From positions 1 to 64,000 of IMG/VR virus record IMGVR_UViG_2910822364_000002: a stretch of DNA of 64,000 nucleotides; one strand, given 5' to 3'. Within the stretch, counting starts at the first letter, position 1. Each line of letters starts with the position of its first letter. The notes under the pieces were generated by a model. It worked only from the letters and a program-made list of their open reading frames with translations, made no database searches and was not told the origin of the DNA. A program made the position numbers and the translations under genes. Of the stretch, positions 40,394 to 54,091 are shown piece by piece. The DNA is from a virus (taxonomy: Duplodnaviria; Caudoviricetes).

Positions 40394-40459
40394 GTATAGT
40401 TTACATATTTTATACACTAGAGGTAGCGGTGGCTTATTGCAGTAGGTCATCGCTATTTT
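40394..40459 (+). ncRNA. Candidate antisense sRNA between immA and ltp
   Basis: Extended -10 TGtTATAAT (40379-40387); 13-bp hairpin with 3 G-U pairs, loop TTGCAG, then TTTT. Confidence 0.45.
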
Positions 40460-40875
40460 AATCTTAGTTTAATCAACTCTTCATTATATCCGAGTGCATG
40501 CGCGATCTGATCGGTAGTAAATTCTTGAAATTCAAGAAAAACTTCGTCGTCAATTAGAAGCTCAGTTGCAAACTTATCTGCTTCGATTTCCATTTTACTT
40601 ACAAGAAGTCCAGTTCGTTTTCTTAAAAATGGAGTATTAGCATCAGGATGCATAATTGCATGACCTAATTCATGTGCACATGTAAATAGCTGATCGTGAT
40701 CAGAAAGATCATGATTTATATGTATTTGCTTCATACGAAGCTGTTTATTGTAGTATCCACTAATGGATCCCAATGGTTCAAATATAACCTTTATCCCTAA
40801 ATACTTAGCAATGTCAAAAGGATTATCCGTACCATATCTTTTCTTTAGTGAGTTTGTTTTTTTACGAATATCCAA
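40453..40875 (-). CDS. ImmA/IrrE-family metallopeptidase
   Basis: HELGH, EIEADKFA; probable TTG start at 40875 after AAGGAAGTG (track starts 40929). Confidence 0.9.
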   Translation of the reverse strand: MDIRKKTNSLKKRYGTDNPFDIAKYLGIKVIFEPLGSISGYYNKQLRMKQIHINHDLSDHDQLFTCAHELGHAIMHPDANTPFLRKRTGLLVSKMEIEADKFATELLIDDEVFLEFQEFTTDQIAHALGYNEELIKLRLK

Positions 40876-40888
40876 TGAATCACTTCCT

Positions 40889-41329
40889 TTATTTTCTGTA
40901 TTTCTTTGGTGTGAATTTTTGCTTAGCATTTATTTTTGCGATGGTTATACTGTTTTGGAGACTCGCTTTTAATAATTCTCTTGTTTCATCATCTAAAGGT
41001 TCTCCGGAGAACATCAGTCCATCTTGATCGGATTCTAACTGATCAAGGGTTTGTTCTAATCGTTTTGCGATATCTTTTTCATCTTTCTTAGTTAGCTCAA
41101 TGGCTTGATCGGATTTTTCTTCTATTAAATCAGATTTTCCAATTCCAAAATAATCAGCGAGAGCTTGTACGCTTCCCATTCTAGGAATGGATTGTCCCGT
41201 ACACCAAGTATTAAATGTTTGTGGAATAACTCCAATAGCTTTAGCCACCTCTTTTTGGCTTTTTCCTGATTTCTCTAAATAGAAAGATAGATTTTTAGAG
41301 AATATTTTCTTTTGCTTTTCATCTGACAT
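40889..41329 (-). CDS. CI/ImmR-like phage repressor
   Basis: N-terminal HTH_3; paired with ImmA; divergent from cro. Confidence 0.9.
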   Translation of the reverse strand: MSDEKQKKIFSKNLSFYLEKSGKSQKEVAKAIGVIPQTFNTWCTGQSIPRMGSVQALADYFGIGKSDLIEEKSDQAIELTKKDEKDIAKRLEQTLDQLESDQDGLMFSGEPLDDETRELLKASLQNSITIAKINAKQKFTPKKYRK

Positions 41330-41739: not shown

Positions 41740-42039
41740 ACGAAAGTATTGAAAGATATACAGCCCGATGAAAAATTAGCAGAGGAAATCCAAAGTAATC
41801 TAGATAAGCAGTTAAAAGAAAAACAGCTAGAAGAATCAGAAGAGTTAAAAACTATTCTGCATGGAGTAACAGGTAAAGAAATGAGATGGGCGATCTATTC
41901 TGCGATTTCTAAGCAAAAAGAAAAACAGCGTTGCCAGGAACAAAAAATATCATCCCTGCAAATAGCTGTTATATTGCAGGGAATAGCTGTAATTATTTTA
42001 GGCATTGGTGGAATCATTTTAAAAAAATATCTACCATGA
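41740..42039 (+). CDS. Small protein with C-terminal TM (start uncertain; ACG after RBS)
   Basis: RBS AGGAGGTG 6 nt before an in-frame ACG; hydrophobic IAVILQGIAVIILGIGG. Confidence 0.5.
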   Translation, partial: TKVLKDIQPDEKLAEEIQSNLDKQLKEKQLEESEELKTILHGVTGKEMRWAIYSAISKQKEKQRCQEQKISSLQIAVILQGIAVIILGIGGIILKKYLP

Positions 42040-42421
42040 CAGAGGCTGTTGCAACAATCAAAGAAAGAATAGAAATAGTTTTAGAGAGTTTTGAATCCGC
42101 CTCTGCAGATAATGCATTTTGTTTGGCGGTCTCTGCAATAGATGTAATGGCATCTATTTGCTGTTGATATTTTGCTTCTCGTTCCTTTTCTATTTTTCGT
42201 TGAAGCTCAAATTCAGCCAAATGAGCGCGGCCTAATTCAGTGATAGAAACTTCATCAGATTCGTTTATGGATACGAGATTTGCATTTAAAAACATTTCTA
42301 CATATCCATCAATAGACGGAAAATCGAAAAAGAAATCACCAGGATTTTGCCCAGGACATTCTAATATTGCCGTTAGAATTTCATATTGATATTCGGTAAG
42401 TTTAAATAACAAATTTTCCAT
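42014..42421 (-). CDS. Counter-oriented moron, membrane-anchored hypothetical protein
   Basis: RBS GAGGAG; own promoter TTGTCT-17-TATACT (42472-42500, minus strand); winged-helix-like N-terminus, C-terminal TM. Confidence 0.75.
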   Translation of the reverse strand: MENLLFKLTEYQYEILTAILECPGQNPGDFFFDFPSIDGYVEMFLNANLVSINESDEVSITELGRAHLAEFELQRKIEKEREAKYQQQIDAITSIAETAKQNALSAEADSKLSKTISILSLIVATASVMVDIFLK

Positions 42422-42511
42422 TAAGAATACTCCTCTCTTAAGACTCGGACATGGCAGTGTCCTGTGAATTAAGTATAGGAGATATATGAAAGAAAGACAA
42501 CAGAATAATAG

Positions 42512-42615
42512 CAGATGGCTTAATTCCCTGCCCGATGCACAGAATCCTGAAATCCTACCTAAATTGGTTAATTAAAAATAGCACTCAATCGTCGGGCAGG
42601 GAATTAAGCCATCTG
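42512..42615 (+). repeat. Long inverted repeat A (26-bp arms, 52-nt loop)
   Basis: CAGATGGCTTAATTCCCTGCCCGATG / CGTCGGGCAGGGAATTAAGCCATCTG; the single mismatch is G-U. Confidence 0.9.
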
Positions 42616-42626
42616 AAGAAAGGTAG

Positions 42627-43022
42627 GTGATGAAAGTGTTCAAGGACAGGCTTAAAAAAGTAATGGTAGATCAAAATATCAACCAAGTAGAGTTGTCCAG
42701 GATCTGCGGTGTGAGTAGGTCAACCGTTAGCAAATGGATGTCTGGAGATTCAGAACCGACAAAAGCAAGAAGAAATGAGATTGCAGAAGCATTTGATCTT
42801 CCAGAGAATTACTTTGAAGAGATAGTAATTCCTAAAAAGAGAATAGAGACATTAACCCCGAAAGAAGTTGCGTATTTGATGGGAATGGGTGTTTCAACAA
42901 TCGAAAAAGGACTGATTCAAGGAACTTTTCCATGGGGATATGCAATCCGGACAAGTGAAAATACGCATAGATATTTCATAAATGCAAAAAAGTTTTTTGT
43001 GACTGAAATGATAAGCGTATGA
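42627..43022 (+). CDS. Two-domain DNA-binding protein (HTH_3 + excisionase-like)
   Basis: N-terminal XRE HTH; LTPKEVAYLMGMGVSTI...FPWGYAI. Confidence 0.75.
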   Translation: MMKVFKDRLKKVMVDQNINQVELSRICGVSRSTVSKWMSGDSEPTKARRNEIAEAFDLPENYFEEIVIPKKRIETLTPKEVAYLMGMGVSTIEKGLIQGTFPWGYAIRTSENTHRYFINAKKFFVTEMISV

Positions 43023-43037
43023 GAAAGGAGCATAAAG

Positions 43038-43172
43038 ATGCACACAGAAACAAAAGCGATGATCTGCACAGCAGCAGTGCTGATCGCAATGGGAATCTTT
43101 AAAGAGTTAGCTGCGGTATGTTTGATCACAGCAGTAGTATTTGAGGAAGGAGTGAAGAAATTTGATAAATAA
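43038..43172 (+). CDS. 44-aa hydrophobic peptide (below track cut-off)
   Basis: RBS AAAGGAG; MHTETKAMICTAAVLIAMGIFKELAAVCLITAVVFEEGVKKFDK. Confidence 0.6.
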   Translation: MHTETKAMICTAAVLIAMGIFKELAAVCLITAVVFEEGVKKFDK

Positions 43173-43566
43173 GAAAGAAAAAAGTGCCCACGGAGCGGCA
43201 ACTCCATTAGGCACATTGCTAAACAAGCAAGATCAGTATAACACAGATCGTCAGAAAAGTGAAATCAGAAAAATAGCAACTGAGATCTTTGATCTATCTC
43301 TGCAGCTGCAAGAAATGACAGATGGAACTATAGACTGGATAGATTGGCGAGAGCCAGGTGTTCCGTGCGTATACGTTGAATATCATGGAGCCACCGCAGT
43401 GCTAAGCGTTAAGATCTGGGAAAATGGATTTAGTGCAGAACAGCGACCTGATTACAGTACAATGCTGTTTCTCGACAATCCGAACTGTATGATCGAAGCA
43501 GGGTATCTTAAAGAAAAATTGATGGGATTATTAGAAGAAAGAAGAGGAAGCGACAATGAAGAGTGA
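43162..43566 (+). CDS. Phage hypothetical protein
   Basis: ORF track; RBS upstream. Confidence 0.65.
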   Translation: MINKKEKSAHGAATPLGTLLNKQDQYNTDRQKSEIRKIATEIFDLSLQLQEMTDGTIDWIDWREPGVPCVYVEYHGATAVLSVKIWENGFSAEQRPDYSTMLFLDNPNCMIEAGYLKEKLMGLLEERRGSDNEE

Positions 43567-43861
43567 AACAACGAAGAAAGTAACAGAAGGAATCGTAAGA
43601 GGTCATGTTTTAGATACAGCAGGATGCACAGACAAGGCAGCTGATGAACTAGAAAAAGTGTTGGAAACCATTTTGTTCGAAATTAGTGATTGCGTAAATC
43701 CGGTTCCAGAAATTGCAAGTGATCTTACAGTGGGCGTTCTTAGATTTATTGCAGACACTTTAGAAAAGAATCTGGATGATAAAGAAAAAGAAACTGCAGA
43801 ACTTGCAAGAGACACTTTACGAATGAAATATAAGACGTTAGTAGTGAGAGCAAAAGCTTAA
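43556..43861 (+). CDS. Phage hypothetical protein
   Basis: RBS AGAGG; coupled to the previous gene. Confidence 0.7.
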   Translation: MKSETTKKVTEGIVRGHVLDTAGCTDKAADELEKVLETILFEISDCVNPVPEIASDLTVGVLRFIADTLEKNLDDKEKETAELARDTLRMKYKTLVVRAKA

Positions 43862-43876
43862 GAAGGAAGACGGACT

Positions 43877-44548
43877 ATGCAAACAATCGAAATCAGCAAA
43901 GGAATCAAACGGATCCAGTTCGATTCCTTTGATTCCTGGCTAAATGCCAGACATGGAATCGGTGGTTCTGATGCATCTGCAGTATTAGGACTCAATCCAT
44001 ATAAAACTAATACAGAACTGTATTTAGAAAAGACAGGACAGCGAACGGCTCCTGATATTTCAGATAAGGATTATGTGAAGTATGGACATGATGCGGAGCC
44101 ATTACTTCGATCACTGTTTGCACTTGATCATCAAGAATACAAGGTCGAATACTTCGGAGACAACATGATCCGAAACGAAAAATATCAATGGGCACATGCA
44201 TCTTTGGATGGAGAACTAACCGATCAGGATGGTCGCAAAGGAATCTTAGAAATCAAGACAACTAACATCCTACAAAGTATGCAGCGTGAAAAATGGAGAG
44301 ATCAGATTCCAGATAACTATTACATACAGGTGCTACATTACCTGCTAGTTACCGAATATGAGTTTGTGGAGCTAAGGGCACAGCTGAAATCAGTGTGGCA
44401 GAGTCAGATCAGATTAGAGACAAAAGATTATCACATTGAGCAATCAGAGGCAGAAGAAGACATCGAGATATTAAGACAAGCGGAAGAAGAGTTCTGGCAG
44501 AATGTCGTAAAAAGGCAGCAGCCGAACTTGATTCTTCCGGAAATATAA
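43877..44548 (+). CDS. YqaJ-family viral recombinase exonuclease
   Basis: GIGGSDASAVLG.NPY, ASLDG, LEIKT, Y..QV.HY. Confidence 0.92.
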   Translation: MQTIEISKGIKRIQFDSFDSWLNARHGIGGSDASAVLGLNPYKTNTELYLEKTGQRTAPDISDKDYVKYGHDAEPLLRSLFALDHQEYKVEYFGDNMIRNEKYQWAHASLDGELTDQDGRKGILEIKTTNILQSMQREKWRDQIPDNYYIQVLHYLLVTEYEFVELRAQLKSVWQSQIRLETKDYHIEQSEAEEDIEILRQAEEEFWQNVVKRQQPNLILPEI

Positions 44549-44563
44549 AAAGGAGAAATTGTC

Positions 44564-44734
44564 ATGAATCGATACGATGAATATATGAAAGAGGTTCAGG
44601 AAAAGAAAAAAGAAAATCAGGCTATTGTAAATAAAATTGTGGAGATTTTAAAAGGCAATAACCTGACTGTTGAACATATTGAAGTCATCTTAAATATGAC
44701 TCGTGAAGAAGTGATTAAAAAGGCGCACTTATAA
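44564..44734 (+). CDS. 56-aa hypothetical protein (below track cut-off)
   Basis: RBS AAAGGAG; MNRYDEYMKEVQEKK...KKAHL. Confidence 0.6.
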   Translation: MNRYDEYMKEVQEKKKENQAIVNKIVEILKGNNLTVEHIEVILNMTREEVIKKAHL

Positions 44735-44758
44735 CAGAAATCAATAAAGGAGAAATAC

Positions 44759-45649
44759 ATGGAATTTAAGATATACAATCCGCAGGAAGAAGGATTCCTG
44801 AAAGAGATTGACTGGAACTATGAAGAGTTAAAAACAGAGATCCAGGGAAAAGCGAATGATTACATGAATCTGGTTTATACAGCAGATCAGGTAAAAGATG
44901 CCAAAAAAGATCGTGCAAATCTTAATAAATTTGTGGAAGTTTTAGAGAGCAAGCGAAAAGAAATTAAAAAACAGATTACAGAACCATATTCAGCATTCGA
45001 GAAACAAGAGAAAGAACTGGTTGGTATTGTTAATAAAGCGATTGCAAATATTGATACGCAGATCAAAGGATATGAAGAAGCAACAAGACAGGAAAAACTT
45101 GAAAAGGTCAAAGAAATCTATGCAAAAACAATCGGTGGACTTGCTGATGTAGTAACGTTTGACAAAATTTTTAAAGAATCCTGGCTGAATGTATCAACAA
45201 CGTTTAAATCGATCACAAAGGAAATCACAGAAATTCGTGACAAGGTTGACAATGATTTATTTGTGATCAATGCAGACACGAGTTCCTTTGCTTATGAGAT
45301 GAAAGAAGAGTATCTAAAGAACTTTGATCTCACTGCAGCGATTAATAAAAAACAAAAATTAGAAGAGACAGCAAAGCAGAAAGCAATATATGAAGAACAA
45401 CTAAAAGAGGAAGAGGAACAAAGAAAACAACGATCACAAGAAGAAGCAAAGAAGGTAGTATTTGCATGTAAAAGCACAGAAAAGCCAGTAAAAGCACAGG
45501 AGCCAGTGAATACAGGAGAAAAAATATCAACGATCACATTCCGATGTACTGTAAAAGAACATAACTTTAAAGAAGTTAACGCAAGACTCAGTCTAGTACA
45601 AAAAGTATGTGAAGAATTTAAAATCATAGATCCAGAGGAGGAATTATAA
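44759..45649 (+). CDS. DUF1351-family coiled-coil protein
   Basis: IDWNYEELK, AKKDRANLNK. Confidence 0.82.
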   Translation: MEFKIYNPQEEGFLKEIDWNYEELKTEIQGKANDYMNLVYTADQVKDAKKDRANLNKFVEVLESKRKEIKKQITEPYSAFEKQEKELVGIVNKAIANIDTQIKGYEEATRQEKLEKVKEIYAKTIGGLADVVTFDKIFKESWLNVSTTFKSITKEITEIRDKVDNDLFVINADTSSFAYEMKEEYLKNFDLTAAINKKQKLEETAKQKAIYEEQLKEEEEQRKQRSQEEAKKVVFACKSTEKPVKAQEPVNTGEKISTITFRCTVKEHNFKEVNARLSLVQKVCEEFKIIDPEEEL

Positions 45650-45650
45650 A

Positions 45651-46526
45651 ATGGCAGTTGGAAACAGTTTAGCAAACAGACAACAGAAAACAGGATTAAC
45701 GGCATATCTTACAAATGATGCTGTGAAACGTCAGATCAATAATGTAGTGGGTGGCAAAAACGGAGATCGTTTTATTGCCTCTATTGTATCTGCAGTACAG
45801 GTTAATTCAGATTTACAGGAGTGTACAAACCAATCAATTTTAAGTGCTGCATTACTTGGAGAGTCTTTAAAACTTTCTCCATCACCACAGCTTGGACAGT
45901 ATTATATGGTCCCATTCAAAAATAACAAAAAGGGATGCAAAGAAGCACAGTTTCAGCTTGGTTATAAAGGATACATTCAGTTAGCAATCCGTTCAGGACA
46001 GTATAAAAAACTAAACGTTTTGGCAATCAAGGAAGGGGAACTGGTTCGATTTGATCCACTGAATGAAGAAATCGAGGTAAATCTGATCGATGATGAAGAA
46101 GCAAGGGAAGAAGCAAAGACAATCGGATACTATGCAATGTTTGAATATACAAACGGTTTCCGAAAAGCTATGTACTGGTCCAAAAAGAAAATGGAAGCAC
46201 ATGCATTAAAGTATTCCAAAGGGTATGCAGCAAAAAAAGGATATACATTCTGGGAGAAAGATTTTGATGGAATGGCTTATAAGACAATGCTTCGCCAGCT
46301 GATCAGTAAATGGGGAATCATGAGCATTGATATGCAGAATGCAATGGAATCTGATATGGCGGTGATCCATGAAGATGGAACAAAAGATTATGTAGATACA
46401 GTTTCAGAAGAAAATATTGTAGCAGATCAGGATCTGCAGGAAACGGCAGAGGAAACACCTGAACCAGAAAAACAGGAACTACAGGAAGAAACAACAAAAG
46501 AAGAACCACAGCAGTTCTTTAAATAA
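45651..46526 (+). CDS. recT: RecT-family single-strand annealing protein
   Basis: L.ECT..SI, LGQYYMVPF, FQLGYKGYIQLAIRSG, MAYKT. Confidence 0.92.
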   Translation: MAVGNSLANRQQKTGLTAYLTNDAVKRQINNVVGGKNGDRFIASIVSAVQVNSDLQECTNQSILSAALLGESLKLSPSPQLGQYYMVPFKNNKKGCKEAQFQLGYKGYIQLAIRSGQYKKLNVLAIKEGELVRFDPLNEEIEVNLIDDEEAREEAKTIGYYAMFEYTNGFRKAMYWSKKKMEAHALKYSKGYAAKKGYTFWEKDFDGMAYKTMLRQLISKWGIMSIDMQNAMESDMAVIHEDGTKDYVDTVSEENIVADQDLQETAEETPEPEKQELQEETTKEEPQQFFK

Positions 46527-46543
46527 AAGAAAGGAGCAACACG

Positions 46544-46969
46544 ATGAAACATATTAACTTAGAACAGTTTGCAGGAGGGAAACTTTCAGTACAGCTTAAT
46601 AAGGCATTAGAAAAGATCACTGAAAATGTTCAGGATCCGAACACTGATGCGCAGAAGGTCAGAAAGATCAATGTATCAATCAGTTTCCGGCCAAACGATG
46701 AAAGAAACTTTGTGGCAACTACGGTAGAAACAAAGTTAAGTCTTGCACCAGAACTTGGAGCTACAACAGCACTGAGTATGGGCAGAGATCTTCGCACCGG
46801 AGAGGTTGAAGCGGTTGAAATCTTTAACCAGATTCCTGGTCAGATGAATGTTGATGATGTGATCGACCAGGAAGAAGATGAAACACCGAAAGCTTTTGAT
46901 CCGGATACTGGAGAGATCTACGAACCAAGCAACAAAGTGATTGATTTAAGAAAAGCAAAACAGGCATAA
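46544..46969 (+). CDS. Conserved phage hypothetical protein
   Basis: NVQDPNT...RKI; DPDTGEI tail. Confidence 0.75.
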   Translation: MKHINLEQFAGGKLSVQLNKALEKITENVQDPNTDAQKVRKINVSISFRPNDERNFVATTVETKLSLAPELGATTALSMGRDLRTGEVEAVEIFNQIPGQMNVDDVIDQEEDETPKAFDPDTGEIYEPSNKVIDLRKAKQA

Positions 46970-46988
46970 AACAGGAGGATACATAACA

Positions 46989-47735
46989 ATGGATAATACA
47001 TTTTTAAGAGAAGCAATCGAAAAGATCGAAGAATTGACAGACAGTGCAAGAGAGCCACACGTTGTAAAAATCGCAGGAAAGACTTATTGCGATAAATCTA
47101 TGTCACGATATGACAGAGAAGAGTTTGCAGAACCATTGACAGCTACAAGTCTTAATTCTCTGATCGATTATATCAGTGGAAAGAGTGAAGAGTTAAGAGA
47201 ATCTATGATCATTCATGTAGAATCTCCAACAAAAGTAAGATTACTATCTGGTCTTACAAATGAAAGAAATCGAGAAGAATTATTCCGCGTAGGTACAAAT
47301 CCAAATGGTTTTGATTTCGATCATTACTATGATCAGGAAGCGTTTGTAATTAATATGCAGACTGCCTTTAAACAGAGTGATGAAACAGAACTGATTCTTT
47401 CAGTTGCTGGAAACGTAGAAAATAAAACAGTGGCCAACTATGGAGATGATGGAGTCAGCCAGAAAGCTACGATCACAAAAGGTATTGCAGGAAAAGAAGA
47501 TGTGATCGTACCAAATCCAGTAACACTTCGCCCATATCGTACCTTCCTGGAAGTAGAACAGCCAGAAAGCAAGTTTATCTTTCGAATCAGAGAAGGTTCT
47601 GATGGGCAGCCAATGTTTAAATTGGTAGAAGCTGATGGTGGTCTCTGGAAGTATGAAGCTGTAGATGCTATCAAGAAATATTTAACAGAGAATTTACCGG
47701 AAGAACTGTTAAAAGTGATCACGATCATCGGGTAA
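46989..47735 (+). CDS. Conserved phage hypothetical protein
   Basis: DDGVSQ, PNPVTLRPYRTFLEVEQPES.F.FR, EADGG.W. Confidence 0.8.
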   Translation: MDNTFLREAIEKIEELTDSAREPHVVKIAGKTYCDKSMSRYDREEFAEPLTATSLNSLIDYISGKSEELRESMIIHVESPTKVRLLSGLTNERNREELFRVGTNPNGFDFDHYYDQEAFVINMQTAFKQSDETELILSVAGNVENKTVANYGDDGVSQKATITKGIAGKEDVIVPNPVTLRPYRTFLEVEQPESKFIFRIREGSDGQPMFKLVEADGGLWKYEAVDAIKKYLTENLPEELLKVITIIG

Positions 47736-47740
47736 CAGTT

Positions 47741-48169
47741 ATGGAGACAGTTAGATTTACAGTCCCTGGTGAACCGAAAGGAAAAGCCAGGGCAAGAACT
47801 GTCCGTAGTAAAAAAGGTGGAACTTTCTCATATACGCCAGAAGGTACTATGTTGTATGAGAATCTGATCAAGTGCTGTTACAGGCAGGAATCAAACAACA
47901 TCATTTTTAATGACGGACAGCCCTTAAAAGTAACGATCATAGCTTATTATCCGATCGTTAAGAGTACAAGCAAGAAAAAGAAACAACAGATGTTGGAAGA
48001 CCTTATGTTTCCAACGAAGAAACCAGACATTGATAACATTGCAAAAAGCATTCTGGATGCGTTGAATAAATTAGCATACAGGGATGATACGCAGGTTGTA
48101 ACGCTGCATATGGAAAAGCATTATGCAGAGAACCCACGAGTTGAAGTAGAGATAGAAGAAATATTATAG
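47741..48169 (+). CDS. rusA: RusA-family Holliday junction resolvase
   Basis: GEPKGKARAR, KPDIDNIAKSILDALN, DDTQV. Confidence 0.92.
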   Translation: METVRFTVPGEPKGKARARTVRSKKGGTFSYTPEGTMLYENLIKCCYRQESNNIIFNDGQPLKVTIIAYYPIVKSTSKKKKQQMLEDLMFPTKKPDIDNIAKSILDALNKLAYRDDTQVVTLHMEKHYAENPRVEVEIEEIL

Positions 48170-48187
48170 AGGAAAGGCGGTGTTCTA

Positions 48188-49054
48188 ATGGGCCGTAAAC
48201 CCAAAACAGGACTAGATTACTTTCCTAAAGATGTCGATTATTACGACGATTTTAACATCATGGATCTGATGAACGAGTATGGTCCATTAGGGCAGACCAT
48301 CTATGATGTTGTTCTATGCATGATTTATCATGAAGGATATTACCTGGAAGTGCCTAAAATGGAGCAGTTAGCGGTAAAAATAATCAAAACCATTGGTAAC
48401 CGCTGGGTAAAGAAAAAGGACTTTGTGTTACAAGTAATTCATTATTGTGCGGAGATAGGTCTTTTCGATCAAGACCTCCTGAATCAAAATGTTATTACCT
48501 CTGTTGGAGTTCAGCGACGCTATAAAGAAGTGACTGTTAGGAACAAAGTCGATAGAAGTAAATACTGGTTGATTGATGAAAACGGTCAACCTTTATTAAA
48601 TGCACCACAAAATAGCATTTCCGTAACAGAAACAAGCATTTCTGCAACAGAAAAAGATATTTCTGCAACAGAAAAACGACAAAAGGAAAGTAAAGTAAAT
48701 AAAAATATATATTATAGCAATCCAGATCTGAACAGAGAGTTCTGTCTTTACCTTGATATGAGGAATCATACTGGACCAACATTATCTGCAGAACAGATCA
48801 ATGCCTTGAAAGAAGAACTTGATTCTCTGGCTGAGAACGATTCTGATAAGTTGGGTATTGTAAGAAAAGCATTTGGTGGAGGTTATAAGAGCTTCTTCCC
48901 TACATCAAAGAAACGGAAGAAATCAACACCGAAGCCAAAGAAAGAAGAAACTATACACAATTTTACCCAAAGAGAAGTAGCAGATCGTGATTATGAGAAT
49001 CTGGAAAGACAGTTATTAAAGAAACAATTAGGAGGTGACATAACGTATGGATAA
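48188..49054 (+). CDS. Phage replication initiator (DUF4373/Lin1244-type)
   Basis: GLDYFP.DV, YGPLG, EGYY, TS.GVQRRY; internal iterons. Confidence 0.82.
   Translation: MGRKPKTGLDYFPKDVDYYDDFNIMDLMNEYGPLGQTIYDVVLCMIYHEGYYLEVPKMEQLAVKIIKTIGNRWVKKKDFVLQVIHYCAEIGLFDQDLLNQNVITSVGVQRRYKEVTVRNKVDRSKYWLIDENGQPLLNAPQNSISVTETSISATEKDISATEKRQKESKVNKNIYYSNPDLNREFCLYLDMRNHTGPTLSAEQINALKEELDSLAENDSDKLGIVRKAFGGGYKSFFPTSKKRKKSTPKPKKEETIHNFTQREVADRDYENLERQLLKKQLGGDITYG
48617..48674 (+). repeat. Three 16-bp iterons at 21-bp spacing (probable phage origin)
   Basis: ATTTCCGTAACAGAAA, ATTTCTGCAACAGAAA x2 inside the initiator gene. Confidence 0.7.
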
Positions 49055-49778
49055 TTTGATTCCTGTTAACTATGAAACAGAAGAACCAACAGTTTCAGCA
49101 AGAGATTTGCATAAAGCATTGAACATTCAATCCAGATTTAGCAGATGGTTTGAAAATAATAAGAGACTATTTGTTGAAGGTGAGGATTATAACAAATGTA
49201 CATCAAATACAGTTGTTAATAATGGAGCTGTTAGGGAACTAGAAGATTATCAAATAACAATGATAATGGCAAAACATTTGGCTATGATGTCTAGGACAGA
49301 AAAAGGAAAAGAAGTTAGGGATTATCTTATTAATCTTGAAAGAGCTTGGAATAGTCCAGAGCAAGTATTTGCAAGAGCTTTGAAGATGGCAGATAAGACA
49401 ATTGATAAATTAAAATCTGATAATGTAATTTTAATTGAAGACAATGAAAGAATGAAACCAAAAGAAATTTTTGCAGATGCAGTAACAGCAAGTGACACAT
49501 CTATCCTAATCGGAGAACTGGCCAAGATTCTTAGACAGAATGGAGTTCAGACAGGGCAGAATAAACTGTTTGAATGGCTGAGAAATAATGGATATCTGAT
49601 CAAGAGAAAAGGATCAGACTGGAATATGCCAACACAGAAAGCGATGGATATGGATCTGTTTGAAATCAAAGAAACGGTAATCAACAATCCAAACGGATCA
49701 ACAAAAATCAGTAAGACTACAAAGGTCACTGGTAAAGGGCAGCAGTATTTTATTAATAAGTTACTTGCTGCAAGCTAA
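49047..49778 (+). CDS. ant: Antirepressor (AntA/AntB + KilAC/ANT)
   Basis: VSARDLH, MAKHLAM, WNSPEQV.ARAL, PK..FADAV, KVTGKGQQYF. Confidence 0.9.
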   Translation: MDNLIPVNYETEEPTVSARDLHKALNIQSRFSRWFENNKRLFVEGEDYNKCTSNTVVNNGAVRELEDYQITMIMAKHLAMMSRTEKGKEVRDYLINLERAWNSPEQVFARALKMADKTIDKLKSDNVILIEDNERMKPKEIFADAVTASDTSILIGELAKILRQNGVQTGQNKLFEWLRNNGYLIKRKGSDWNMPTQKAMDMDLFEIKETVINNPNGSTKISKTTKVTGKGQQYFINKLLAAS

Positions 49779-49789
49779 GTAAATAAAGG

Positions 49790-49939
49790 CATCCGGTTGA
49801 TCTCTGTCCGTAGCAACCAACAACCAAAGATTGTTGTTAAAAAGTCGTAGTAATAGTCGTGGTAGTTGTGGGTTTCGGGATGATCTTAAGCGACAGGACG
49901 TAAAAAGATGATCACATGCGGACAGAGATCAGCCGGATG
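49790..49939 (+). repeat. Long inverted repeat B (21-bp arms, 108-nt loop)
   Basis: CATCCGGTTGATCTCTGTCCG / CGGACAGAGATCAGCCGGATG; the single mismatch is G-U. Confidence 0.9.
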
Positions 49940-50041
49940 GACTGAATTATATACCACAGTAACTATTAACATGCATAAGAAACAAGCCAATGTATAAGCC
50001 ATGAGCCTGCTGCTTAAGGCAGTGGGCAGAAAGGAGAACTG

Positions 50042-50260
50042 ATGGCAGATTACAGCAAAGGATTTAAAAGACGTGTTGTACAGTTATGGATCCAACATGG
50101 TATGTCCACAAATGAGATCAGCAGAACATCAGGCATCGATCATAAGACATTGATGAAGTGGTATAAGCGTTTCTACCCTGAGTTAACAGGGGGGGGCGAG
50201 ACAAAACACGAAAGTTTGCAGTGGCATTATGTAGGCAATTGTTCCGGATATCATAAGTAA
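50042..50260 (+). CDS. Small HTH protein
   Basis: YSKGFKRRVV...NEISRTSGIDHKTLMKW; RBS GAAAGGAG. Confidence 0.7.
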   Translation: MADYSKGFKRRVVQLWIQHGMSTNEISRTSGIDHKTLMKWYKRFYPELTGGGETKHESLQWHYVGNCSGYHK

Positions 50261-50270
50261 AGGAGTATGA

Positions 50271-50505
50271 TCAGACAGCTTAACTTTCTATCTGATTAAG
50301 ATTTTTCGAGTAACTATTAACGAAGCAAGCAAACGTAAACATATTTTTCAGGTTTTTTGTATTTTTATTTTTCACAAACTAGATTTGGTATTACAATTTT
50401 TCAAATCACAGGAGAAGAATCACGGCAGTTTATATGATCGGGCAAGAAATTATAGAAATGTGATCAGTATAAATGCTGTTTCAGGTAGAAAGTTAAGCTG
50501 TCTGA
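50271..50505 (+). repeat. Long inverted repeat C (25-bp arms, 185-nt loop)
   Basis: TCAGACAGCTTAACTTTCTATCTGA / TCAGGTAGAAAGTTAAGCTGTCTGA; the single mismatch is G-U. Confidence 0.9.
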
Positions 50506-50519
50506 GATAGGTAGATAGT

Positions 50520-50927
50520 ATGAGTAAACAAGATTATATCATGCAGGGCAGAAATGAAGGAATTGCGTTCTGTGACAAAATAGCAAAAGAAAAAGGATTA
50601 GAAGAGCTACAGAGAGTAACAAGACAGAGAAATCTTGCAGGGCTTCGAACACTAATAGATCCAAGAGAACTTGATCAGGATTTTAGAGATGCAACACTAC
50701 AGATTTTAGATACTGTGTTGATCATGAGTCTTATAGTCTTGAAAGATGAATTTGATTTCGGAACTAAGAGATTAGATCGATTCAAAAAAAGATTCAATGA
50801 CAAAACAGAGTGTTTAGAAACAGGAAATGTGACATGGATCGATATGATCGAGCAGGTCAGAGAAGAAAACAACATTAAATTAGATCTTAGAAAGAACGAT
50901 GTAGTGATGGCATGGAGGAGAAAATAA
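50520..50927 (+). CDS. Conserved phage hypothetical protein
   Basis: GRNEG; L.DEFDFG.KRL.RFK. Confidence 0.75.
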   Translation: MSKQDYIMQGRNEGIAFCDKIAKEKGLEELQRVTRQRNLAGLRTLIDPRELDQDFRDATLQILDTVLIMSLIVLKDEFDFGTKRLDRFKKRFNDKTECLETGNVTWIDMIEQVREENNIKLDLRKNDVVMAWRRK

Positions 50928-53606: not shown

Positions 53607-53683
53607 GCCCCAGACTTGGTGGATTCATGAAAAACAAAAATGAAAAAAGGATCAAACGGCAAGATTTTAGGAGGAACGGAAAC

Positions 53684-54091
53684 ATGGCAAAGAAAGTAGC
53701 GTATCCGGTTATTTTAAAACCGGATCAAGAAGGGTATTATGTAGAAATCCCTGATTTTGATATCGCTACAGAAGGCGATACAATAGCAGAGGCTATGGAA
53801 ATGGCCAGAGATGCTATTGGATTGATGGGGATTGATATGGAAGATGAGAAAAAAAGTCTTCCAGAACCAAATTCAAAAGCTCAAAATGTAGAAGCAGGAG
53901 ACACAGTAACACTTGTAGATGTAGACTTTACAGAGTACAGAAAGAGAGTGGATAATAAAGCAGTTAAGAAAAACTGTACAATTCCATATTGGATGAGTGT
54001 AGAAGCCGATAAAGCGGGAATTAATTATTCACGAGTATTACAAGATGCAATTTCTAATATATTAGGAGTTGCGCGTACAACAAAAGGTTAA
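53684..54091 (+). CDS. hicB: HicB antitoxin
   Basis: YPVIL, VEIPDF..ATEG.T..EA.EMARDA, VKKNCTIP.W RHH; RBS AGGAGG. Confidence 0.92.
   Translation: MAKKVAYPVILKPDQEGYYVEIPDFDIATEGDTIAEAMEMARDAIGLMGIDMEDEKKSLPEPNSKAQNVEAGDTVTLVDVDFTEYRKRVDNKAVKKNCTIPYWMSVEADKAGINYSRVLQDAISNILGVARTTKG

Follow-up and report, generated by a model that had tools for sequence, protein, structure and literature searches.

The first 64 kb of the 80,848-b IMG/VR provirus record IMGVR_UViG_2910822364_000002, here termed the window, carry three intergenic inverted repeats, E1, E2 and E3, in the early rightward operon of a temperate phage of Anaerostipes. The three elements appear to constitute one cassette family acting on the sense strand, with further members, E4 and E5, in related phages; each cassette would consist of a near-perfect helix of 21–26 bp (P1) formed around a conserved non-coding segment of 50–230 nt. 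Comparison among relatives makes it highly probable that the feature under selection is a structure of the sense-strand RNA. On balance, these sense-strand cassettes are probably best understood as RNase III-type processing or stability signals, embodied in the closing stems, which also serve as recombination linkers; for actual cleavage of the stems by RNase III the chances are judged to be even.

All parts of the elements given here lie on the + strand. E1 comprises a 5′ arm at 42512-42537 (26 nt), a loop of 52 nt at 42538-42589 and a 3′ arm at 42590-42615, and its stem of 26 bp includes one U·G pair at 42536/42591. The 3′ arm is followed directly by the sequence GAAAGGTAGG, which resembles a ribosome-binding site (RBS), and then by the start of a Cro-like HTH_3 gene. 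E2 begins 11 nt after the stop codon of an antirepressor gene, with a 5′ arm at 49790-49812 (21-bp core 49790-49810), a loop at 49813-49916 and a 3′ arm at 49917-49939 (core 49919-49939); the stem has 21 bp with one U·G pair and encloses 108 nt, or 23 bp with a 104-nt loop if a second U·G pair is counted. E3 is closed by a P1 helix of 25 bp with one U·G pair (5′ arm 50271-50295, 3′ arm 50481-50505) around a 185-nt loop, and the ATG of the next gene follows at 50520. A preliminary description of these repeats had given arm lengths of 26, 21 and 25 bp and loops of 52, 108 and 185 nt, with a single mismatch in each that is a G·U pair on the + strand, and all of these values were reproduced exactly. 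It had also stated that two of the elements end 2–3 nt before an RBS, and the 3′ arms of E1 and E3 do precede purine-rich, RBS-like sequence. Its statement that T tails and convincing target-site duplications are lacking held as well: none was found after or around E1–E3, and no consistent duplication was seen. The elements do not have the form of intrinsic terminators, as their 3′ arms are not followed by a T tail and a terminator scan was empty at all three. The combined promoter and terminator scan yielded fewer hits than expected from shuffled sequence, with one weak promoter-like site in the E3 loop (50369-50397).

E1–E3 are the sole inverted repeats of such quality across the 80,848-b record, and none of 40 locally shuffled windows contained a repeat of at least 21 bp with at most one mismatch. 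Their folding z-scores relative to shuffled sequences are -11 (E1), -8.5 (E2) and -5.8 (E3).

The principal evidence for a function of the paired form comes from the way in which the arms have changed among relatives. In the E3 stem, compared over 27 sequences, 99.1% of cells are paired, and in 12 pairs both partners have changed. The observed values were not reached in any of 500 shuffles, and slid controls were paired to 32–46%. The E2 and E1 stems are paired to 95.6% and 94.9%, with 5 double-change pairs in each, and the arms of E1 are thus kept in relatives with compensatory changes. One-sided departures were tallied over all distinct arm pairs, each combination of site and type being counted once; read on the + strand, G·U accounted for 19, A·C for 5 and other combinations for 1 (binomial p = 0.003), so that the equal frequency of A-C and G-U, named beforehand as an outcome that would speak against an RNA-level system, was not observed. 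In E1, chimeras joining a variant left arm to a right arm of the window type, which pair U·G, are common, and none of the reciprocal chimeras, which would pair C·A, was seen among the E1 copies. The minimum free energy (MFE) is lower on the + strand for 37/37 copies of E2 and 41/44 copies of E3 (78/81 combined). Loci were also oriented by RecT alone, and in every case (16/16, 24/24 and 28/28) the asymmetric loops shared the strand of RecT; the orientation of the elements is always that of the early genes. Structures on the + strand are under selection, and the RNA-level system originally proposed is well supported by compensatory changes in all three stems, by the G·U excess, by + strand folding of E2 and E3 and by the strict orientation.

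The arms, previously described as unrelated, are in fact connected. Those of E1 and E3 are identical at 16/24 positions, and all eight differences are transitions; an inner motif, CTCTGTCCG, is common to E2 and to variant E1 arms of relatives, and an outer-stem motif, CAGAYRRCTTAA, is common to E1 and E3 and to the additional families E4 and E5, which bridge the others. As RNA, the shared outer helix reads CAGAYRRCUUAA paired with its complement. E4, at L149:3756-3925, L151:4072-4240 and L209:8311-8479 (L-numbers denote loci of relatives), pairs over 24 bp, one of them U·G, around a 121-nt loop; an E1 variant precedes it by ~230 nt, and an RBS resembling the one after E1 comes next. E5, at L199:385-663 and L200:11082-11360, is a divergent E3 with a 26-bp stem and a 227-nt loop. 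Throughout the five families the length of P1 stays within 21–28 bp despite very different loops.

The enclosed segments differ in their architecture. E3 and E5 are predicted to be four-helix structured RNAs of ~235–280 nt. In E3, P1 is followed by P2 (5′ strand 50300-50307, 3′ strand 50414-50421), whose strands are separated by a ~105-nt A/U-rich region with invariant sequence blocks, and by a P3/P4 hairpin at 50422-50479 with ~18 bp and a purine-rich cap loop of 20 nt, the length of which is invariant in E3 and E5. Independent MFE folding of at least six sequence types, including the divergent E5, returned the same helices, and compensatory changes are found in P2, P3 and P4: P2 is compensated in the L034 and E5 types, the P3/P4 hairpin, which also carries such changes, is recovered in every sequence type, and the P2 and P3 helices of E5 are fully compensated. 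The G/U-rich loop of E2, which contains TGATC motifs and AGTCGTRGTA in two direct copies, is ~90% identical over its 104 nt across the group and displays little internal covariation. The possibility, raised in advance, that homologous phages keep the arms while swapping the loops does not apply to E2 and E3, whose loops are conserved and, in E3, built of several helices; the E1 loop ranges from ~40 to ~95 nt among relatives, with a conserved 3′ half and a 5′ half of varying length. Within the 80.8-kb record, the E1–E3 loops share no complementary or repeated words of at least 12 nt beyond chance, barring GTAACTATTAAC. This exact 12-nt direct repeat occurs at 49959-49970, 20 nt after E2, and at 50310-50321, inside the E3 loop; its copies lie within ~30 nt of homologous context, both are kept in the relatives L096 and L199, and it may be a candidate binding site of the neighbouring helix-turn-helix (HTH) protein. 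In most sequence types, a Shine–Dalgarno (SD)-like AAAGGAG without a conserved open reading frame (ORF) is located 5–7 nt upstream of the E3 5′ arm (50261-50270 in the window). It resembles the STAB-SD mRNA stabilisers of Bacillus.

The elements are carried by ~100 related gut-phage contigs and Anaerostipes genomes, with one copy per site. Exact-arm scans of IMG/VR returned 34, 41 and 63 contigs, a set enlarged by scans for motifs and by scans anchored on proteins; of the 158 long inverted repeats in 872 kb of these relatives, 152 are E1, E2 or E3. When a single genome of each species was scanned for exact motifs, the E2 core turned up only in Anaerostipes hadrus, in A. amylophilus and in Clostridiales/Eubacteriaceae gut metagenome-assembled genomes, and it is because of this confinement that Anaerostipes (Lachnospiraceae; human gut) is taken to be the host. 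Four host genomes searched with the E1/E3 arm pattern contained 0–2 elements each: three had single copies inside one prophage region and the fourth had none. Around RecT genes of 74–89% identity (580 kb), stems were found only where RecT is at least 86% identical and not at 74–82%, in a scan requiring a 9-nt exact seed, which divergent G·U-rich stems could escape. Taken together, the relatives, the host genomes and the distant RecT loci therefore indicate a lineage-specific phage feature rather than a dispersed host repeat. The absence of a recognised family, noted earlier, is consistent with three permissive cmscan runs against Rfam 15, which returned sub-threshold chance matches and no family; the matches were to miRNA-precursor models on the bare hairpin, on both strands, and to SgrS (17 bits against a threshold of 37). 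A literature search on inverted repeats of Anaerostipes prophages returned nothing relevant.

The cassettes also mark the joints of the phage genomes. When the elements were compared by BLAST together with their flanks, homology between phages was seen to start or stop 0–14 nt from the element ends. E1 and the RBS downstream of it move together and stand ahead of different genes, while the left flank is variable. In L096, E2 and E3 follow each other in the opposite order, and E3 lies between an RBS and the start of an HTH gene. In the window, E2 and E3 are separated by an HTH_Tnp_1-like ORF of 72 aa (50042-50260, +), relatives of which adjoin E3 or E5, upstream in the window and at L199:46-375 and downstream in L096:1067-1468 (-); the ORF is precisely absent in L060, L062 and L079. 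Chimeric arms imply that crossovers occur within the loops as well. Because of this breakpoint pattern, the cassettes are proposed to act as recombination linkers, that is, as patches of homology for the exchange of neighbouring genes.

The mechanism envisaged for the cassettes starts with transcription through them, upon which the polycistronic early transcript would fold the P1 helices. Host RNase III could then cut P1, because the helices span two turns of almost pure Watson–Crick and G·U pairing. The cuts would segment the operon mRNA and set the 5′ ends of downstream cistrons just ahead of their RBSs, and they would release or define the structured loop RNAs, which may have roles of their own; helices that escape cutting would act as barriers to exonucleases. 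That both arms lie on a single transcript, as such cutting would require, is made more likely by the G·U excess on the + strand, by the preference for + strand folding and by the orientation that the elements share with the operon. As a secondary effect, the conserved cassettes would provide homology where phages swap adjacent genes. About two helical turns is the size class needed by RNase III (for context, see PMC3867540). The stems of E1, E2 and E3, with 26, 21–23 and 25 bp, exceed 20 bp (~two turns) of double-stranded RNA without large internal loops, G·U pairs being the only exceptions to Watson–Crick pairing. A canonical RNase III is encoded, above the curated cut-off, in 3/3 host Anaerostipes genomes tested. 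In Bacillus subtilis, the enzyme acts mainly on long-range intramolecular mRNA duplexes, and U-G is enriched in the distal box (PMC11780869). The RNase III-type reading is favoured because the length of P1 is constant, because the hosts encode the enzyme and because of the B. subtilis precedent.

Several observations weigh against this interpretation. The folding energy of E1 has no strand preference, and a C·A mismatch at position 14 of the E1 stem (42525/42602) persists in 9/17 copies; the copies bearing it include some that are compensated at other stem positions. G·T is the least destabilising mismatch in single-stranded DNA too, and strand asymmetry cannot by itself exclude a hairpin of + strand single-stranded DNA. 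Mutation biased from C to T on the + strand might add to, or inflate, the G·U count, and the U resides in the 5′ arm in 15/19 G·U events. E2 and E3, positioned just downstream of replication genes, themselves carry features of phage origins, namely direct repeats, a T-rich tract and clustered GATC sites. Finally, the sequence that the outer stems have in common hints at recognition of a specific sequence, something that a generic RNase III can do without. A less likely variant holds the cassettes to be a phage-specific system of portable, stem-bounded non-coding RNAs in which the outer helix (CAGAYRRCUUAA and its complement) is recognised by a dedicated processing or binding factor that excises stable, trans-acting loop RNAs, and in which this helix is also the joint for exchanging cargo RNAs and adjacent genes among phages. 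If so, the excised G/U-rich RNA of E2 and the four-helix RNAs of E3 and E5 might, for example, control the lysis–lysogeny decision, the antirepressor or host defences.

Other explanations account for parts of the same data. The elements could be discrete stable non-coding RNAs, E2 and E3/E5 being the clearest cases, whose loops do the work, for example by binding a protein of phage or host or in trans, and for which P1 is no more than a closing or protective helix; cutting of the mRNA into segments by RNase III would then be incidental. This is tenable but unlikely. The loops are conserved as strongly as the arms; E3 and E5 combine a covarying four-helix architecture with an apical purine-rich loop of invariant length and repeatedly adjoin the small HTH_Tnp_1-like gene; and the SD-like motif before most E3 copies lacks a conserved ORF. 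Nevertheless, loop complementarity to the rest of the record does not exceed chance, the E1 loops vary in length and sequence, the E2 loop covaries little internally, and a perfect 25-bp closing helix would be unusual for an RNA of this type and would still attract RNase III. An improbable reading places the function in the DNA, as cassettes of the phage lineage resembling transposable elements of the miniature inverted-repeat type (MITEs) or recombining as hairpins, or as single-stranded DNA hairpins or origin elements in replication. The terminal inverted repeats are related across the five families, as expected of MITEs, but no target-site duplication is consistent in the flanks of many copies, and 0–2 elements per host genome (four searched), in one prophage region, do not amount to dispersed copies. 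While the sharp module boundaries, the insertion-like position of E3 between RBS and start codon in L096 and the HTH ORF next to E3, which resembles a transposase N-terminus, might speak for mobility, a catalytic transposase is absent and 68/68 checked copies are co-oriented with the operon. The MITE reading was rejected because target duplication, copy number and orientation all speak against it. As to replication, E2 and E3 do follow the replication organiser gene and contain the direct repeats, GATC clusters and T-rich tract mentioned above, whereas E1 and E4 reside in the operon leader, far from replication genes. Moreover, terminal repeats bound by protein would not be expected to show compensatory changes, an excess of G·U or covariation of internal helices.

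The preliminary description had also offered translation-gated switches for downstream genes. On this reading, ribosomes on short leader ORFs over the 5′ arms would melt the stems and thereby regulate the genes that follow. Candidate ORFs of 29 codons (ATG at 42486) over the E1 5′ arm and of 10 codons (ATG at 50267) over the E3 5′ arm are indeed present in the window. A 1-nt deletion puts the former out of frame in several relatives, and relatives with a different left flank lack it; over half of the copies have lost the start codon of the latter, by a change to ACG or in some other way. The downstream RBSs are outside the stems and hence not sequestered. Gating by leader peptides was rejected because the ORFs over the arms are not conserved, and such switches are considered very improbable. 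Least credible of all is that the elements are invertons, invertible DNA segments that flip a promoter between their repeats. Inverted repeats of 21–26 bp flanking 50–230 bp, together with the weak promoter-like site in the E3 loop, would suit this arrangement, but 0/68 RecT-oriented copies are inverted in the assembled contigs and none in flank-anchored alignments, no invertase gene is adjacent, and the covariation and G·U bias indicate pairing rather than recombinase sites. This candidate was discarded for the lack of any inverted copy among the assembled contigs.

The genes around the elements are those of a temperate siphovirus-type prophage, which extends from ~38 kb of the window onward. 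The lysogeny genes on the - strand include one for an ImmA-like Peptidase_M78 protein (40453-40929) and one for a protein of 135 aa (42014-42421). The early operon on the + strand includes the Cro-like HTH_3 gene (42627-43022; start 42627 or 42630), continues with genes for a YqaJ exonuclease, DUF1351, RecT and RusA, and reaches the elements E2 and E3 after the genes of the Lin1244_N replication organiser (48188-49054) and of the AntA/KilAC antirepressor (49047-49778). A near-palindrome, GGACATGGCAGTGTCC, is present at 42440-42480, upstream of E1 in the divergent intergenic region; relatives keep it along with the promoter-like sequence on its flanks, and it probably represents the immunity operator. 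An ORF at 53627-54091, beyond the early operon on its downstream side, matches HicB-like antitoxins (phrog_497, E = 3e-36). A megablast search of GenBank phages gave a 65-nt RecT segment of Listeria phages as its sole match, and no deposited relative of the group was found there. A search for sequencing runs that contain the stretch returned no RNA run, and its only matches were four DNA-type runs of a single study, with 40% of the words.

If the stems are processed, this phage group would offer a clean natural case, in a gut Firmicute, of early-operon RNA being divided into units at related long-range duplexes; operon cutting of this sort is known in detail mainly from T7 in Escherichia coli, and on chromosomal mRNAs from B. 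subtilis. At least two structured RNA motifs outside Rfam, the four-helix E3/E5 and the G/U-rich E2, would be added with support from covariation. The coincidence of RNA cassettes with the mosaic joints of the phages would tie the function of RNA to the modular evolution of genomes in an abundant commensal of the human gut.

The closest precedents differ from the elements in instructive ways. T7 early-region RNase III signals are hairpins of ~50–60 nt with an internal loop and are mostly cut once. Like these signals, the elements described here are intercistronic, belong to a phage early polycistronic transcript and are sequence-related sites that separate cistrons, but they are perfect helices of 21–26 bp closing loops of 52–227 nt (for context on T7, see PMC4858673, PMC3867540). 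In long-range mRNA duplexes of B. subtilis, RNase III cuts the two strands alike, and its substrate motif is enriched in U-G wobbles (PMC11780869). The resemblance is that distant segments of Firmicute mRNAs pair and loop out tens to hundreds of nucleotides. However, the B. subtilis duplexes occur at scattered chromosomal sites, are usually imperfect and form no sequence family (PMC11780869), whereas the phage stems, as putative substrates, are near-perfect, sequence-related, present at three to four per operon and placed around conserved structured RNA. The Correia elements (CREE/NEMIS) of Neisseria form hairpins that bind RNase III and are either cleaved or protected, and with ~100–150 nt, inverted repeats of ~26 bp and a location in transcribed intergenic DNA they come close to the elements in build (PMC2649163). 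They are MITEs with a TA duplication and hundreds of dispersed copies in both orientations (PMC2649163); the phage elements, in contrast, lack a duplication, occur once per site and in phages only, are always in the sense orientation and have compensated stems. The PeSL cassettes of T4-type phages are likewise conserved, intergenic and situated at the borders of gained, lost or swapped genes, but consist of an early promoter and a short terminator-like stem-loop (PMC2839356, PMC4122927), while the present cassettes have long closing helices and neither a T tail nor a conserved promoter. The kind of element is already known, from long RNase III duplexes in phage and Firmicute operons and from conserved intergenic cassettes at mosaic joints. 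This family, by comparison, is undescribed, and it is distinguished by related perfect closing helices at three to four per operon, by conserved structured cargo and by its restriction to Anaerostipes phages.

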